Below are positions 48,214-54,729 of a stretch of 64,000 nucleotides of DNA, one piece after another. The DNA comes from Magnetococcales bacterium (GTDB lineage: Bacteria > Pseudomonadota > Magnetococcia > Magnetococcales > Magnetaquicoccaceae). The stretch covers positions 40,946-104,945 of the forward strand of contig PDZU01000003.1 in NCBI GenBank assembly GCA_002753095.1, in the 5' to 3' direction. The position numbers and the translations under genes are program-made. Positions within the stretch are counted from its first letter, which is position 1. Every line of letters starts with the position of its first letter. Under the pieces are notes generated by a model that ran no database searches, was not told the DNA's origin, and saw only the letters and a list, made by a program, of their open reading frames with translations.

Positions 48214-48951
48214 CTACCTCTCCTGGGCGGTTGACGGAGAATCGCCCTTCAACCAGATGCATGCACCGGAATCCCGCTGCAGGCGCTGCAAAAAGGCGAC
48301 ATGTTCGGTCAGTTCCTGCTCCAACAGAGGCCAATGTCGTGGTGGAATGACACCGCTGCTCTTGCCAGAGTGGCTGATGGCGTCTGTGCTGTCATGCTTC
48401 TCCTGGTTGGTGGGCAGGTCGGTCAATGCCAAGCGCAACTGGCTGCCACCGGTCAACTCCAGATAGACCGAAGCCAACAGATCGGCATCCAAAAGAGCGC
48501 CATGCAAGGTACGATGGCTGTTGTCAATTTTCAGCCGACGGCACAGGGCATCCAGCGAGGCAGACAAACCCGGAAATTTACGGCGGGAAAGGGCAATGGT
48601 ATCAATGGCACGACCCAGGGCAAGGGGGGTCCGCTGCAACCGTTCCAGTTCTGCATTCAAAAAACCCATATCAAACGAAGCGTTATGGATTATCAGAGGA
48701 TCATCTGCAATAAAGGCCAAAAAATCATCGACCAGATCAACAAAGCGGGGCGCATTGGCCACTTTTTCCTGGGTGATGCCATGCACACGGACAGCTTCGG
48801 CGGGAATATCCCGCTCCGGGTTGATCAAGGTATGGAACTGTTTCCCCCGACGATTGTTGAGCAGTTCAATGCAACCGATTTCGACGAGGCGGTCACCATT
48901 GGCAGGGGAGAGACCGGTTGTCTCCGTATCCAAGACGATCAGACGTTTCAT
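48214..48951 (-). CDS. dnaQ: DNA polymerase III subunit epsilon (3'-5' exonuclease)
   Basis: Exo I is VLDTETTG, Exo II is IIHNASFDMGFL, and Exo III is HGALLDADLL. The start is set to the ATG at 48951, which gives an ATGA overlap with the upstream stop. The kinase ATG follows the dnaQ stop with no gap. Confidence 0.88.
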   Translation of the reverse strand: MKRLIVLDTETTGLSPANGDRLVEIGCIELLNNRRGKQFHTLINPERDIPAEAVRVHGITQEKVANAPRFVDLVDDFLAFIADDPLIIHNASFDMGFLNAELERLQRTPLALGRAIDTIALSRRKFPGLSASLDALCRRLKIDNSHRTLHGALLDADLLASVYLELTGGSQLRLALTDLPTNQEKHDSTDAISHSGKSSGVIPPRHWPLLEQELTEHVAFLQRLQRDSGACIWLKGDSPSTAQER

Positions 48952-50429
48952 ACATGGGACTCGTTGCGGGCAAGAGGAGGCCAGGGCGGCGTGGCCGAAC
49001 TGCTGGCCGAGGATTGGGACCGTTTGTTGACAAAAAGAGCCGGATAATCGGCAGCAATCTGGGCCGCGACCCGCTCGCCGTTGCGCACACAATCGGCTAC
49101 GGAGATACCATCGCGCCAGTTGGCCCGCAGATAGAGACCGGGGAACTGTTGCAACTCGGCATCCACCTGCTGCAGGCGCTGTAGATGACCCAGAGTGTAT
49201 TGGGGAATGGCAGCCGCATAGCGGGTCAAATAGACGAAATCGGCAGCAGGCATCACCCCCAAGGCATGGGTCAGATCCTGTTCCACCTGAGCAATCAGTT
49301 GGGAATCATTGTGTTGCAACAGATGGGGTTGTGTGGCACCACCGATGAAGGAGGTCAACAACGCCTTGCCCTCTGGTGCCCGATCGGGAAAGAGGGTACT
49401 GGAAAAAAGGGTGCCCAACAGAGGCAACTGTTCCCGGCGGGGAATCAAAAAGCCGAAACCATCCAGCGGATGGGGAACGCCGGCCCTGGGATAGCCCAGG
49501 GCAACGCTGGCCACGGGGGCGTAGGGAATGGCCCGCAATGCGCTGACGGCACTCTTGGCAAACGGGGCCACCAATTGGGCAGCAGCAGGAGCAGGGACAG
49601 CCAACACCACCGCTTTGGCCAATATTTTTTCGGTTTTGCCAGCCACCCGATGGTCTGGCAGCACATTGACGCCATACACCTGCCAGCCCGTTCCTTGCGG
49701 ACTAGGTAGCAGACTCAATACCTTGAAACGGGTTCGCACCACGTTGGGGGTCAATTGCTGGGCGATACGGTTGGGAAGCAGACCCATGCCCTGATCAAAG
49801 GAGATCATGCGCCCTTTCGGCAATCCGGCCCCTTTGAGCAGGCGGCCCTGGTGCAGCGCACCGCGCAACAGCGAACCATGTTCCCGCTCCAGAGCATAAA
49901 TTTTGGCCACTGCCGCCTGCACCGAAAGCTGTTCTGGATCACCGGCATAGACACCGGAGATAAAGGGATCGACCACATTTTGGAAAAATTCGTCGCCCAA
50001 ACGGCGGCGCACAAACTGTGCAACGCTCTCCTCTTGACTGGCGGCGGGATGAAAGGGCTCCAACAGTAGTTGCAGCTTGGCCCGCCAACTAAAAAATGAG
50101 GAGAGAAAAAAGGCCGGAGGGGAGGTGGGTAGGGGTTTGAGTTGTCCCTCGCGCAAAATATAGCGCCGGGCCGCCAGGGGATTGGCAACTTGCAGATGGG
50201 GCTCCAGTTGTAACTGCTGGATCAAGCGGCCCAAGGCATCGTCTGGATGCCCAGGCTTTTGCAAGGTGGAGTTGGGACCATGTTCCACCCGATAGTCCTG
50301 TTTGCACGAGGTCAGGATGGCGCCACCCGGCTGGTTACGGGCCTCCAAGAGCCGCACCGGAATCCGGTGTGCCTGCAAAAACCAAGCAACCGACAACCCC
50401 GATATACCGCCACCAATCACCACAACCAC
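48948..50429 (-). CDS. hemY: FAD-dependent protoporphyrinogen oxidase (HemY type)
   Basis: The N-terminal dinucleotide fold is VVVIGGGISGLSVAWFL and the ~490 aa product is an amine-oxidase-fold protein in heme gene context. It uses a GTG start with GAGGA upstream. Confidence 0.8.
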   Translation of the reverse strand: MVVVIGGGISGLSVAWFLQAHRIPVRLLEARNQPGGAILTSCKQDYRVEHGPNSTLQKPGHPDDALGRLIQQLQLEPHLQVANPLAARRYILREGQLKPLPTSPPAFFLSSFFSWRAKLQLLLEPFHPAASQEESVAQFVRRRLGDEFFQNVVDPFISGVYAGDPEQLSVQAAVAKIYALEREHGSLLRGALHQGRLLKGAGLPKGRMISFDQGMGLLPNRIAQQLTPNVVRTRFKVLSLLPSPQGTGWQVYGVNVLPDHRVAGKTEKILAKAVVLAVPAPAAAQLVAPFAKSAVSALRAIPYAPVASVALGYPRAGVPHPLDGFGFLIPRREQLPLLGTLFSSTLFPDRAPEGKALLTSFIGGATQPHLLQHNDSQLIAQVEQDLTHALGVMPAADFVYLTRYAAAIPQYTLGHLQRLQQVDAELQQFPGLYLRANWRDGISVADCVRNGERVAAQIAADYPALFVNKRSQSSASSSATPPWPPLARNESHV

Positions 50430-50468: not shown

Positions 50469-51878
50469 TTAAATCGTCCTGGAAAAGCTCTTTTTTTGCT
50501 GGGCATGGTTCAAATACCAATCAAATACCATGCAAATATTACGAATCAACAGCCGTCCAGCCGGCTTCACCCGCAACAATGGGCCCTCTTCTTCCAGCAG
50601 ACCGTCACCGATCATCCGTTGCAAGGTATCCATTTCGGCCTGAAAGTAGTCGGCAAAATCCACGTGAAATTTCTCTGCGATGGCCTGCCGATCCAACTGA
50701 AAATCACAAATCAAACGCATGATCACTTCGCGGCGCAACAGGTCATCCTCATGCAAACTCAAACCGCGAAAAATGGCCAGCTCGCCTTGATCGATGCGCT
50801 GGTAATACGGCTCCACCTCTTTTTCATTCTGGGCATAGATTCGCCCAATTTGGCTGATGGAGCTGCTGCCCATGCCGATCAGGTCACAATCACCATGGGT
50901 GGTATACCCTTGAAAATTGCGGTGCAACACCCCTTGGCGCTGGGCCACAGCCAATTCATCATTGGGTTTGGCAAAATGGTCCATGCCGACATAAAGATAC
51001 CCGGCAGCAGTCAAAAAGCGAATGGTGCTCTCCAGAATACGCAACTTTTCGGCAGGGCTCGGCAACTGCTCCGGGTTGACCCGCCGTTGTGGCATGAAAT
51101 ACTGTGGCAAATGGGCATAATTAAAGACAGCCAGTCGATCCGGATCCAGCTCCTCTACCACATGTTGCAAAGTATGCAAAAAAGACTGTTCACTTTGCAA
51201 TGGCAAACCATAGATCAAATCCAGATTGATGGAAGGAAACCCAGCCGCACGGGCTTCCTCCACCACACGTCGGTTCAGCTCCAGGGGTTGAATGCGATTC
51301 ACTGCCTTTTGCACCGCCGAAAACAGATCCTGAAAGACGGTGGAAAGACGATTAAAACCCAAACGACGCAGCTGGGTGATGGAACCGCTGGGCATTTCAC
51401 GCGGGTCTATCTCAATGCCATATTCGCCCTCTGTATCCGGTACCAGACAAAAATGGTGCTGCAGGGCCTCCATCAACTGCTGCAGTTGGGCACTCTCCAG
51501 ATAGGTGGGTGTTCCCCCCCCCAGATGCAGTTGTAAGACCGGTCGTTGCCGACCAAACAGCTCACCGAGTAAAGCCACCTCGCGCAGCAGGGATTGCAGA
51601 TAACGGGCCGCCCGGCTGCGATCAGGAGTGACGATTTTGTTGCATGCGCAATAGTAGCAGACCGTATCGCAAAATGGGATATGGATATAGAGCGAAAGGG
51701 GACGGTCCGCTTGTTGGGCGGCTGCCTGGAGCGCCTCGGCACGAAAATCCTGTACGGTAAACCCCTCGTGCAGATGAGGAGCCGTGGGGTAGGAGGTATA
51801 GCGGGGACCGGACTGATTGTAGCGTTCAATCAATTCCCGATCAAAAACAACCTGTTGTTTAATTTGATCCGGGTTCAT
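50469..51878 (-). CDS. hemN: Oxygen-independent coproporphyrinogen III oxidase (radical SAM)
   Basis: The GPRYTSYPTA motif and the radical-SAM cluster motif CDTVCYYCAC are present. Confidence 0.93.
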   Translation of the reverse strand: MNPDQIKQQVVFDRELIERYNQSGPRYTSYPTAPHLHEGFTVQDFRAEALQAAAQQADRPLSLYIHIPFCDTVCYYCACNKIVTPDRSRAARYLQSLLREVALLGELFGRQRPVLQLHLGGGTPTYLESAQLQQLMEALQHHFCLVPDTEGEYGIEIDPREMPSGSITQLRRLGFNRLSTVFQDLFSAVQKAVNRIQPLELNRRVVEEARAAGFPSINLDLIYGLPLQSEQSFLHTLQHVVEELDPDRLAVFNYAHLPQYFMPQRRVNPEQLPSPAEKLRILESTIRFLTAAGYLYVGMDHFAKPNDELAVAQRQGVLHRNFQGYTTHGDCDLIGMGSSSISQIGRIYAQNEKEVEPYYQRIDQGELAIFRGLSLHEDDLLRREVIMRLICDFQLDRQAIAEKFHVDFADYFQAEMDTLQRMIGDGLLEEEGPLLRVKPAGRLLIRNICMVFDWYLNHAQQKKSFSRTI

Positions 51879-52981
51879 GGTCTCTTCTCCTGTATGCGCT
51901 GCATACCCCCATTCTGCTGCAGCAACAAACGGCTCTCTTCCCGTACCGCACGCACCAGATCCACGACCCGTCCTGGATCCATATCCTGGGCCATGCCATG
52001 CCCCAGATTGAACACATGTCCCGGATATGGACCATAATCCTGGAGCAGTTGGCGAACCTGATGGCGAACAATATCAGGCGTGGCATAGAGCACGGCTGGA
52101 TCCAGATTACCCTGCAAAGCCGCCCGCGCCGCCACCTGGTGCCGCGCGGTAGCCAAATGGGTGGTCCAGTCCAGACCAATGACATCACACCCGGTACCAA
52201 TCATCTCCTCCAGCATGCTGCCAAAAAAAAAAAAAAAAAGGATGATCGGTACAGTCTGACCATCCGGTCCCACACGCTGCAGGCGATCGATGATTCTTTG
52301 GATGCTGCGCAAAGAGAAAGTGACAAATTCTCGTGGTCCCAATACCCCACCCCAGGTGTCAAATATTTGAACCGCCTGAACGCCATGGGCAATTTGCGCA
52401 TTGAGATAATCCGCCACCACATCGGCAATTTGATCGAGCAACTGTTGCAGAAGGGCAGGTTGATCAAAAAGCATCCCCTTGATATAGCGGAAGGTTTTAC
52501 TTGATCCCCCCTCGACCATATAGGTGGCCAAAGTCCAAGGTGAACCGGAAAAACCGATCAGTGGCGTTTTTTCTTGCAAAGCCTGACGAATTTGGGTCAC
52601 CGTTTGCAGTACATAACCCAACTGCTCTTCTGGCTGTACCGGGCGAAGGCGACGCAGATCGCTAGGTGTGCGTAAAAACGGTTCTAAAACAGGGCCTTCA
52701 CCCATTCCAAAGGAAAGAGACATACCCATGGCTTCTGGCACAACCAGAATATCAGAAAAAAGAATGGCCGCATCCATGTCAAAACGGTACACCGGTTGCA
52801 GGGTGACTTCTGTAGCCAAGTCGGGATTTTTGCACAAGGAGAGGAAGTTGCCCGCTTGTTGGCGAACCCGCATGTATTCCGGCAAATAGCGTCCGGCCTG
52901 ACGCATCAACCAAACGGGAGTTTGATCGACTGGCAGCGAGTGGCAAGCACGCAAAAAACGATGAGTAGGTTCAATGGGCAT
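51875..52981 (-). CDS. hemE: Uroporphyrinogen decarboxylase
   Basis: The PVWLMRQAGRYLPEY motif is present and the protein aligns end to end with E. coli HemE. The start is set to the ATG at 52981 (MPIEPTHRFLRAC, compare MTELKNDRYLRAL). The track ORF begins at the GTG at 53008. Confidence 0.93.
   Translation of the reverse strand: MPIEPTHRFLRACHSLPVDQTPVWLMRQAGRYLPEYMRVRQQAGNFLSLCKNPDLATEVTLQPVYRFDMDAAILFSDILVVPEAMGMSLSFGMGEGPVLEPFLRTPSDLRRLRPVQPEEQLGYVLQTVTQIRQALQEKTPLIGFSGSPWTLATYMVEGGSSKTFRYIKGMLFDQPALLQQLLDQIADVVADYLNAQIAHGVQAVQIFDTWGGVLGPREFVTFSLRSIQRIIDRLQRVGPDGQTVPIILFFFFFGSMLEEMIGTGCDVIGLDWTTHLATARHQVAARAALQGNLDPAVLYATPDIVRHQVRQLLQDYGPYPGHVFNLGHGMAQDMDPGRVVDLVRAVREESRLLLQQNGGMQRIQEKRP
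52223..52239. repeat. A17/T17 homopolymer inside hemE (encodes LFFFFFG)
   Basis: Counted directly: 17 consecutive A on the plus strand. The run is in frame (CTT TTT TTT TTT TTT TTT GGC on the coding strand). Confidence 0.95.
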
Positions 52982-53030
52982 GGATACGTTCCTGTTGGGG
53001 GACGACACCGTGTGATGGGCCGTACCGGTT

Positions 53031-53270
53031 GCTGTTTCTGCTTTTCTTTAAAGATAAAAAAAAGTTCGTAGTCATTGCGCCTGTGGAAATGTGGAAAATG
53101 TGTCCATCCAACGAAACGACAGTCTGTTTTTGGTCACAGACCGCTGTGGAGGGATTGTGTCCATTCCGTGCATGAAAATGCATGCGGGTTGTCTTGCCCG
53201 AAATCGGGATGGGTTTTTCACAATGCATCAACGGTTCATCAACATGTTATGCACAGGTTCCTGTGGATAA
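53031..53270. promoter_or_regulatory. AT-rich tract plus a cluster of DnaA-box-like 9-mers upstream of hemE (candidate oriC or DnaA-regulated hemE promoter)
   Basis: Elements read from the sequence:
- TGTGGATAA at 53262-53270, a perfect match.
- TTATGCACA at 53247-53255 and TTTTTCACA at 53214-53222, which both fit TTWTNCACA.
- TGTGGAAAA at 53090-53098, which fits TGTGNAWAA.
- TGTGGAAAT at 53082-53090, an 8/9 match.
- A ~28% G+C tract at 53031-53076 by my count. Confidence 0.35.
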
Positions 53271-53302
53271 CATCACAATTTTAATCAATACCTGTATTTA
53301 TC

Positions 53303-54562
53303 CTATTTTGTTTCCGTATCCGAAGCAAGGCGACGATAGACCAAAGAGCAGTTGATTTTGGCGGCCTGCCCAGAGTGGATGGAAACCAAGGCTTCATCCT
53401 TCAAGCGGATCCACTTCTCTCTGGAATTGACAGTGCGTACAGGATGATCGGGGGAAGTGGGCCGACCCGCCTCGGTATGTTCAAAACGGGCCCGGAGAAT
53501 GGCCACGGTGCTCTGATCCGGTCCCTGGAAAAGAAAATCTTGATGAATATCAAGAGGCCAATTTTTACTGGCAGCAGTCAATTGCGCCAACAATTCGGCA
53601 TCCACCTTGAGCAGAAGATACTGCTCAATGGCGATCTCCTCACTGGTGCTGGAGGTGGTGAGAAAGGTCAAGCGACGCGTCTGTTGAGAGGAGATAAAGA
53701 CGGTTGCCGGGATCTTTTTCCAGGCCAACAGTTGCGCAGCCAAAGAGGCAGCACAACGGCGCCCGGAAGCATTGTGATAGAAATTGAAATATTCAAAAAA
53801 TTTCTTTTCTAAAACATCGACATACTCTTCGCCGCGCTCATAAAGGGACTGTTCGATATAATTCAAGTAGAGTGCCAGCCCCCGGATGGCATTATCCAGT
53901 AGTCGTTCCACTTTGACATGAAAATGGGTCAACTCAAAAGGCCAGGCATCGCCATCGGCAGTACGTTGCACCAGCAAAGCATAATCAAGGGGCAGGAGCA
54001 TCTTGAGCAGGGAATTAAATTTTTCATGGTTGGTGTGGCGCATGGACCATTTATACTGGTGCAATTCGGTCAAATCCGGGGCCACTTCCAGAAGGTTTTC
54101 CTTGTACAGGCGGTTGCCTTCCCGAAAACGAAAATTTTTGCGCATTTTTTCCGGGATGGTGCCATCCACCAGAATAACCAGAGCACTGTTTTGCAACTCA
54201 AACTCTTTGGCATTGGTAGGGGAGCCGGGGCGCAACTTGCTGGGCGAAACAAATGGGTAGGGAATACCCTGCGCGTTAAAGTTATGGTACGAGTCGAGTA
54301 AGGTATATTCGATCAAGCTGTGTGCAATTTTCTCGCGGGTAACGAGATAAGGATCCTGCCGGGATTGCGACAGAACCTTTGCGTCTGGCAAAACGAGAGA
54401 ACAGGAATCCTTGGTCATGACCGGATTCGACCTTTCGACATCAAACTGCATTGAAAACAAGCACAACCACATCCCTGTCACACGGAATGAAAACCATTCC
54501 GAATCCAACCAAAGAGCCTGAAATATGGGGTCACTGAACCATATTTCCCCTGATTGTTGCAA
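53303..54562 (-). CDS. Hypothetical protein (no family recognised)
   Basis: This is a long uninterrupted ORF in a co-directional gene string. The track start is a TTG; in-frame ATGs at 54452 and 54419 are alternatives. The G+C content looks a little lower than in the flanks. Confidence 0.55.
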   Translation of the reverse strand: MQQSGEIWFSDPIFQALWLDSEWFSFRVTGMWLCLFSMQFDVERSNPVMTKDSCSLVLPDAKVLSQSRQDPYLVTREKIAHSLIEYTLLDSYHNFNAQGIPYPFVSPSKLRPGSPTNAKEFELQNSALVILVDGTIPEKMRKNFRFREGNRLYKENLLEVAPDLTELHQYKWSMRHTNHEKFNSLLKMLLPLDYALLVQRTADGDAWPFELTHFHVKVERLLDNAIRGLALYLNYIEQSLYERGEEYVDVLEKKFFEYFNFYHNASGRRCAASLAAQLLAWKKIPATVFISSQQTRRLTFLTTSSTSEEIAIEQYLLLKVDAELLAQLTAASKNWPLDIHQDFLFQGPDQSTVAILRARFEHTEAGRPTSPDHPVRTVNSREKWIRLKDEALVSIHSGQAAKINCSLVYRRLASDTETK

Positions 54563-54729
54563 GGATTTTATTCATCCGGTCCGCAAAAAAAAGGGTGGAA
54601 GAGAGCCTGTTGTCAGAGGATGCACGATGCACTGGATCATGTTACACTGGCCGGGTGTGGGCTGAAAACGGCCTGGACAATTTTTGACAAAGCAATTCTT
54701 AACCTGCTGAACAACAACGGAGTCACACA

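Follow-up and report, generated by a model that had tools for sequence, protein, structure and literature searches.

We analysed a 64,000-nucleotide stretch of the draft genome of a Magnetococcales bacterium (henceforth the window, i.e., C172:40946-104945; the draft has 177 contigs and 3.58 Mb, and contig C172 has 54.6% G+C), and found that the spacer directly upstream of hemE, at 52982-53302, is very probably the chromosomal origin of replication (oriC), in a position orthologous to that of the origins linked to hemE in Alphaproteobacteria. A first-pass annotation of the window had proposed a candidate origin or DnaA-controlled promoter at this place, and its origin interpretation is now supported by a conserved cluster of DnaA boxes with an AT-rich tract, by the minimum of the cumulative guanine-cytosine (GC) skew, by the lack of an origin adjacent to dnaA, and by synteny. 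Three features by which an oriC is generally recognised were found here, namely a box cluster beyond chance, an AT-rich tract beside an oriented box, and a location at the skew minimum; the layout of the motifs, their conservation across the order and their coincidence with the skew minimum are direct observations. As for the host, its HemE protein shares 85% identity with the HemE of a Magnetococcales metagenome-assembled genome (MAG) and 69% with that of Magnetococcus sp. YQC-5, while the protein encoded on the other side of the spacer is 87% identical to one of Ca. Magnetaquicoccus inordinatus; judging from these protein identities, the host belongs to the magnetotactic cocci of the order Magnetococcales, with Ca. 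Magnetaquicoccus as its nearest named relative. Genomes are referred to as G000 (the window's own genome) and G005, G009, G014, G024, G028, G031, G036, G045, G047 and G052 (relatives), where G045 is a complete relative with a single contig of 4,719,581 bp and G024 belongs to the same genus as the window genome.

The spacer is bounded by the stop of a conserved minus-strand orphan gene on one side and by the start of hemE on the other. All five DnaA-box-like 9-mers that had been reported from it were recovered on the plus strand at their positions. The strongest is R1 (53262..53270, minus strand), a perfect box that reads TGTGGATAA on the plus strand and TTATCCACA on the hemE-sense (minus) strand; the others, all in plus orientation, are R2 (53247-53255; TTATGCACA, 1 mismatch), a weak box (53214-53222; TTTTTCACA, 2 mismatches), and the two members of a tandem pair (53090-53098, TGTGGAAAA, 1 mismatch; 53082-53090, TGTGGAAAT, 2 mismatches). 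The two CATCAAC copies noted earlier are indeed present at 53226 and 53237, 11 nt apart, and we found them to be the cores of two extra degenerate boxes (GCATCAACG at 53225 and TCATCAACA at 53236); the stretch 53214..53255 (plus strand) therefore forms an array of four 9-mers in strict 11-bp phase, with starts at 53214, 53225, 53236 and 53247. These four 9-mers share one orientation, opposite to that of R1, which follows 6 bp beyond the array. R1 is identical in seven of the eight same-genus genomes and reads TTTTCCACC in the remaining one, the R2 position reads TGTGGATAA in several relatives, and a third box lies 2 bp past R2 in most loci that have the R1-R2 pair.

To the hemE side of this array, an alignment of the window spacer with those of seven congeners (eight same-genus spacers in all; a separate alignment was made with two relatives) revealed a conserved block, TTT(C/T)ATGCAC (53166..53181, minus strand), which is a degenerate DnaA box: it reads TCATCCACA in one congener and CTTTATGCACG in the complete relative, and overlaps a small palindrome. 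A further degenerate box at 53145..53153 (plus strand) reads CCCTCCACA on the hemE-sense strand, and among the seven congeners the position aligned to it is TTTTCCACA in L089, L090 and L091 and a more degenerate box in the other four. The tandem overlapping boxes (53082..53098, plus strand) read TTTTCCAC-ATTTCCACA in hemE sense, correspond to TTATCCAC-TTATCCACA in relatives, and adjoin the AT-rich tract 53031..53076, a candidate DNA-unwinding element (DUE). The low G+C content (28.3%, vs 54.6% for the contig) and A8 run ascribed to this tract were confirmed; it falls within the lowest 0.6% of all 46-nt windows genome-wide, all congeners and the complete relative have an AT-rich tract at the corresponding position, and the hemE promoter probably lies in or beside it. 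A second AT-rich patch (53267-53312; 21.7% G+C) was rejected as an unwinding element, being variable among congeners and overlapping the orphan-gene stop.

A repeated TGTGGA module described in the first-pass annotation is real, with small corrections: TGTGTCCAT does recur, at 53099 and 53156, with spacers of 3 and 5 nt rather than 4-5 nt, and the second copy of the module exists but starts at 53145 rather than 53146; the TGTGTCCAT repeat is not conserved in relatives in the genus alignment. A sigma-70 promoter scan gave no match, an Rfam scan of 52700-53600 returned nothing relevant, and single-strand folding of the spacer gave no structure signal (z = -1.0). GATC and GANTC are both missing from the 321 bp, an absence that is not significant. 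The IHF consensus WATCAANNNNTTR does not occur in the spacer (four matches lie elsewhere in the window), and the earlier statement that CtrA-type TTAA-N7-TTAA sites are lacking holds for the whole 64-kb window.

Considered within this one genome, the box cluster is of modest significance. The spacer is the second-densest DnaA-box cluster of the 3.58-Mb draft in 350-bp windows (the densest lies upstream of ndk), and at least three boxes with at most one mismatch in 321 bp have P ~5e-5 per site; with ~0.6 such sites expected per genome by chance, the single-genome cluster is merely suggestive. Perfect boxes are likewise not enriched genome-wide (29 observed vs ~27 expected from 2 x 3.58 Mb / 4^9). 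We then compared the orthologous site in 32 Magnetococcales hemE loci, counting boxes with at most one mismatch in the 450 bp upstream of hemE and in the remaining 143 kb. The density was 6.3/kb upstream of hemE vs 0.23/kb elsewhere, a 27-fold local enrichment. In a control set of 78 hemE loci of Gamma- and Zetaproteobacteria the density was flat (0.31/kb upstream of hemE vs 0.24/kb elsewhere), and therefore box enrichment is not a general trait of hemE promoters. The boxes also stand out as phylogenetic footprints: in the alignments with the two relatives and with the seven congeners, their sequence, spacing and orientation are kept while the intervening sequence changes freely. By these sequence comparisons, conservation across relatives lifts the box cluster far beyond chance.

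The conserved loci follow a common plan. Read in hemE sense, it comprises R1 (TTATCCACA), a 6-bp gap, R2 (TGTGGATAA), a 2-bp gap, a TGTTGATGA-like box, a 2-bp gap, a GTTGATG-like box, a 2-bp gap, TGTGGAAAA, a variable stretch, TTTCATGCAC, TTTTCCACA, the tandem TTATCCAC-TTATCCACA, a short G+C cluster, a CTA-type run with 3-nt periodicity, the AT-rich tract and finally hemE. The inverted pair TTATCCACA-N6-TGTGGATAA (R1-N6-R2) occurs in 17 of the 32 Magnetococcales loci. The distance from the proximal box to the hemE start ranges from ~65 to ~270 bp across loci with the module intact, which, on the sequences compared, is unlike an operator fixed to a promoter. An apparent exception is G005, where four boxes lie 535-713 bp upstream of hemE. 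G009, from a divergent family, lacks boxes in its hemE spacer and has the orphan gene in inverted orientation.

The position of the spacer relative to the switch in strand composition was assessed by cumulative GC skew, a check that the first-pass annotation had suggested and that localises a minimum to within ~2-10 kb. The minimum fell at or near the hemE spacer in G045, G024, G036 and contig C172. The sampled skew of G045 has positive values between 0 and 2.2 Mb and negative ones between 2.4 and 4.72 Mb, with the cumulative minimum at ~25.4 kb, i.e., ~1.5 kb off the hemE spacer (26.70-27.10 kb); hemE starts there at 27.1 kb, and the 398-bp spacer has two perfect boxes. In G024 the strand-corrected skew rises between 47 and 57 kb, from -0.044 to +0.033, and the hemE spacer (51.9-52.2 kb) is one of the best change points; in G036 the cumulative minimum (~62 kb) coincides with a box pair that shortly precedes hemE, at 62.1-62.2 kb. 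Contig C172 has its cumulative minimum at window ~49-54 kb, and the strand-corrected change point at ~48 kb sits in a flat zone of 44-58 kb that includes the spacer. Skew in G014 is negative as far as hemE; in G031, dnaA lies 80 kb to the left of hemE with negative skew between them, and the sole box pair in 160 kb is at hemE. G009 provides a useful natural control for the association of boxes with skew, as its skew passes through hemE without a switch and its hemE spacer is box-free. A separate feature of the C172 profile is a block on the right-hand side of the proposed origin, at C172:110-114.6 kb (equivalent to window 69-74 kb, outside the window), where four minus-strand genes have a strand-corrected skew of -0.07 to -0.19, opposite to their surroundings; this block may be a recent inversion or insertion.

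An origin next to dnaA, the other location to be considered, was excluded for the window genome. Here dnaA-dnaN lies at the end of contig C138, whose strand-corrected skew stays negative along its full 57 kb, and no intergenic space exists upstream of dnaA; the origin is therefore not beside dnaA in this genome. A dnaA-adjacent origin is also unsupported in G045, where the rpmH-dnaA spacer and the dnaA-dnaN gap are G+C-rich and contain no box with at most one mismatch. Within window 40-64 kb, the hemE spacer is the sole box cluster.

Box clusters elsewhere in these genomes were examined as competing candidates. The densest of the window genome (G000:C134:2106-2291; L004) occupies the divergent promoter gap between ndk and a DUF4412 gene and contains two perfect TGTGGATAA boxes 12 bp apart (start to start), together with GGTGGATAA and TGTGGCTAA. 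It was rejected as an origin, given that its conservation is limited to the genus, that no skew switch occurs at ndk in G024, and that ndk of G045, at 3.74 Mb, is box-free; it is probably a DnaA operator for ndk. G045 has a cluster of six perfect boxes and several weaker ones at 1,197,362-1,197,654, far from any skew switch and with no counterpart seen in the window genome, which could be a datA-like or DnaA-reactivating sequence (DARS)-like site, or the origin of a foreign replicon. The surrounding 550-bp gap (G045:C1:1,197,287-1,197,839; L138:3287-3839) separates convergent genes for a MiaB-like methylthiotransferase and an NAD-dependent epimerase, has a transposase adjacent and two AT-rich patches, and lies 1.2 Mb from the skew switch. 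Also in G045, and 3 kb away from the hemE spacer, the AT-rich pilD-aroE spacer (G045:C1:23,508-23,814; L119:3508-3814) contains the perfect box TGTGGATAA twice; it may have a regulatory function or belong to the origin as a second component. The window lacks a box spacer of this type, the gap in the corresponding flank (folD and the next gene) being only 44 bp. A box cluster at 156 kb in G009 lies inside coding sequence and was taken as chance.

Gene order around the spacer provides a further line of evidence. hemE (51875..52981, minus strand; Pfam PF01208, URO-D, E 1.3e-125) is the first gene of a tightly packed hemE-hemN-hemY-dnaQ string, whose last member (48214..49092, minus strand) encodes DNA polymerase III epsilon (TIGR01406, 271.6 bits vs a cut-off of 222.7). 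The proximity of hemE and dnaQ that had been remarked upon is therefore real, dnaQ being 4 kb away; the likeness drawn to Caulobacter stands in so far as dnaQ is near, and needs qualifying as to arrangement, since dnaQ is here downstream of hemE in the same string and not across the origin. The described gene directions were also found, leftward over 40.5-54.56 kb and rightward beyond. On the other side of the spacer, the orphan gene (53303..54418, minus strand) is 46% identical at the protein level to the neighbour upstream of hemE in G045; homologues occur throughout Magnetococcales and, at 31-44% identity, elsewhere. The gene flanks the hemE spacer across Magnetococcales, and is found in a PGK-VTT context in other phyla. 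The complete relative has the order coaE-pilD-aroE-NIF3 and, divergently, orphan-[spacer]-hemE-hemN-hemY-dnaQ. In three alphaproteobacterial-type contigs (L175, L178 and L179), the orphan homologue is part of the Cori cluster, with maf on one side and COG1806 on the other; the order is secB-dnaQ-coaE-aroE-maf, then divergently the homologue, COG1806, a ~400-bp spacer and hemE-hemH-rho. The spacers of these three contigs carry TTATCCCCA-type boxes, and that of L178 has a box followed by a CTA CTA CTC CTA run beside hemE. Of the genes of this cluster, dnaQ, coaE and aroE were present in our conserved-neighbourhood comparison and maf was not seen, while PF03618 (COG1806) is absent from the whole window genome. 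Taken together, synteny supports a tie between the Magnetococcales spacer and the hemE-bounded origins of Alphaproteobacteria.

Origins bounded by hemE have been described in Caulobacter, Rickettsia and the Anaplasmataceae (Wolbachia, Ehrlichia; Brassinga et al.; Ioannidis et al. 2007, PMC1914354). The present spacer resembles this Cori type in several ways: it is an intergenic region of ~320-430 bp bounded by hemE (which starts here at 52981), it has DnaA boxes and an AT-rich tract on the hemE side, dnaQ, aroE and coaE are nearby (the latter two as read in G045), and its orphan flank gene is found within the maf/COG1806/hemE cluster of some Alphaproteobacteria. It differs in having no CtrA sites and no IHF consensus, in being flanked by the orphan gene with no COG1806 (DUF299) or COG1253, in carrying E. 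coli-type boxes (TTATCCACA) where the alphaproteobacterial contigs have TTATCCCCA, and in having dnaQ on the hemE side, whereas Caulobacter has hemE and dnaQ on opposite sides of the origin. A hemE-linked, DnaA-dependent origin is thus a kind already known, of which the present case lacks the CtrA, IHF and COG1806 features; as a kind of element it is expected, and it occurs here in a deeply branching relative of the Alphaproteobacteria. Our literature search found no description of any Magnetococcus origin (DoriC predictions were outside that search).

Two further systems help to interpret the layout. In E. coli oriC, according to the model of Leonard and Grimwade, arrays of low-affinity boxes are nucleated from the R boxes; in the E. 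coli oriC sequence, box R1 points at the DUE. The orientation of these arrays has been described (PMC6868365). Likewise, the spacer has same-orientation 9-mers 2 bp apart (i.e., in 11-bp phase), strong boxes that anchor the arrays, and a strong box oriented toward an AT-rich unwinding element; it differs from E. coli in the complete lack of GATC in 321 bp and of 13-mer repeats, in the inverted strong box 6 bp from the array, and in its flanking genes. The second system is the basal unwinding system, whose trio rule requires a box with at most two mismatches, a spacer of 0-16 bp and at least three NAN trios on the complementary strand (PMC8287927, PMC6669920). Its elements, i.e., tandem boxes, a short G+C-rich spacer, a CTA-type run of 3-nt periodicity and an AT tract, are clear in L091-L094 (CTA CTA TTT CTA, spacer 5) and in the complete relative (CTT TTT CTA ATT, spacer 4), and a run that fits the rule accompanies the homologous box in L091-L094, L096, L117 and L119.

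From this layout we infer how the spacer would work, namely that it would bind DnaA, unwind at the AT tract and fire as an origin. DnaA would first, and constitutively, occupy the strong boxes, i.e., R1 (53262) and the tandem pair (53082-53098). ATP-DnaA would then cooperatively fill the 11-bp-phased weak boxes (53214-53255) and the degenerate boxes in the middle, giving an oligomer that the tandem boxes would aim at the AT tract 53031-53076, which would melt and take up the helicase. This tract is the predicted opening site because the tandem boxes are oriented like R1 and the DUE in E. coli and like the box-plus-trio module. One replication fork would leave leftward via hemE-hemN-hemY-dnaQ and the other rightward via the orphan gene, folD and lysK.

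Several observations weigh against an origin in this spacer. By itself, the skew of G045 cannot choose between the dnaA and hemE sites, since the strand-corrected change point (t ~0.045) fits equally well at -2.9 to 0 kb (dnaA) and at 23.5-25.5 kb. The draft often shows local switches in skew (3 of them origin-like and 7 terminus-like, among 39 contigs), so that the switch on C172 provides moderate support only; moreover, the right arm on C172 is short, with skew turning negative again beyond window ~69 kb, and skew is uninformative in G028, G052 and G047. At the tandem box of the window the run is CAA TGA CTA CGA, which does not fit the box-plus-trio rule; this run is degenerate both in the window and in its two nearest relatives, which sets them apart from the basal unwinding system, and the sole formal match to the rule in the spacer is trivial, lying within the phased box array. 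Dense box clusters that are not origins do occur in the lineage (at ndk and at 1.197 Mb in G045), and for that reason the case for an origin rests on where the boxes lie and how well they are conserved rather than on their number. Finally, R1, R2 and the third box have the orientations of the core of E. coli DARS1, a site that is not an origin, with the same 26-bp distance between the starts of boxes I and III.

Among the alternatives, we considered that the boxes serve only as a DnaA-dependent operator for hemE-hemN-hemY-dnaQ, coupling haem synthesis and proofreading to the replication cycle, with the origin elsewhere nearby. Such an operator would explain why the boxes lie immediately upstream of a tightly packed operon ending in dnaQ, and it has a parallel in what is probably a conserved DnaA-box operator at another promoter of the genome, that of ndk. 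We nevertheless regard it as improbable. No other box cluster was found in the skew-switch zone of the window, in G031 or around dnaA of G045; the module is preserved at distances from hemE that differ about four-fold; the 78 other proteobacterial hemE loci are without such boxes; and about ten sites, 11-bp phasing and an AT tract exceed what a promoter needs. That no sigma-70-like promoter was recognised also speaks against it, albeit as weak evidence. A DnaA-controlled hemE promoter can, by contrast, coexist with an origin as a possible extra role, and the spacer may also place the hemE-dnaQ string under DnaA control. The two roles are not exclusive, because Cori of Caulobacter also contains hemE promoters.

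Slightly less probable still is that the spacer is not an origin but a DARS- or datA-type site, which would recycle or titrate DnaA and simply have the true origin in its vicinity. As read from NC_000913.3, the DARS1 core of E. coli is TTATCCACT-N5-TGTGGATAA-N3-TGTGTATTA (for the DARS1 and DARS2 cores, see PMC6868365), and in both sites box I is opposite to, and convergent with, boxes II and III; G045 also has a large non-origin cluster, between convergent genes at 1.197 Mb. However, the register differs (gaps of 6 and 2 bp here vs 5 and 3 bp in DARS1), the array runs on for two more phased boxes, and the triplet is joined at the skew minimum to a second module absent from DARS cores, in which tandem boxes are aimed at an AT tract and are accompanied, in congeners and G045, by CTA-type trios. 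A recycling or titrating site would have no reason to lie at or near the skew minimum in several genomes, the spacer has no IHF consensus, and no alternative origin candidate is nearby. DARS2 fits no better, as it is characterised by a place outside the origin and by IHF and Fis sites, neither of which agrees with the location at the skew minimum and the missing IHF consensus. Among the controls, a DARS-like pair upstream of hemE was found at 1 of the 78 loci, in Mariprofundus (Zetaproteobacteria); this pair (L062:5940-5962) reads TTATCCACT-N5-TGTGGCTAA and lies 37 bp upstream of hemE. The core-like triplet (TTATCCACA-N6-TGTGGATAA-N2-weak box) is a conserved, built-in part of the proposed origin; if it worked like DARS of E. 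coli, the origin would itself recycle ADP-DnaA to ATP-DnaA, which we consider a long shot.

As for a chance collection of box-like words in an AT-richer spacer, the number of such clusters expected per genome (~0.6) and the lack of genome-wide enrichment of perfect boxes would permit it, but comparative data effectively refute it, given the order-wide conservation of boxes, spacing and orientation, the 27-fold local enrichment and the unenriched negative controls, and we give it next to no credence.

If the spacer is indeed oriC, the origin of these bacteria would lie beside hemE rather than dnaA, and this linkage would be older than the CtrA, IHF and COG1806 features that mark origins of the Caulobacter type, offering a CtrA-free point of comparison for the later addition of cell-cycle control to the origin. 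In practical terms, the locus would provide a fixed point from which Magnetococcales MAGs can be oriented and closed and growth rates estimated from metagenomes (peak-to-trough), and a starting point for replicating vectors in magnetotactic cocci. The orphan gene, whose product is a conserved protein without a match to a known fold, would then be one that accompanies the origin.

The orphan gene itself was annotated as an open reading frame of 419 codons (53303-54562), but its true start is probably Met49 (54418), which would give a protein of 371 aa. It has no Pfam or NCBIfam match; its AlphaFold model is very confident (predicted local distance difference test, pLDDT, 91.6; predicted template modelling score, pTM, 0.91) and has no fold match in the PDB, the best Foldseek hit having an E-value of 0.15. 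If Met49 is the start, the divergent gap between the orphan gene and folD widens from 167 to ~311 bp (54419-54729), in which no DnaA box with at most one mismatch is present. Elsewhere in the window genome, we observed a second, short gene for a DnaA-like AAA+ protein (G000:C118:23933-24415; L002), with a 252-aa frame that matches PF00308 at 62.9 bits and is without the C-terminal domain of DnaA; judging from this domain composition, it is probably an Hda-type regulator of DnaA.

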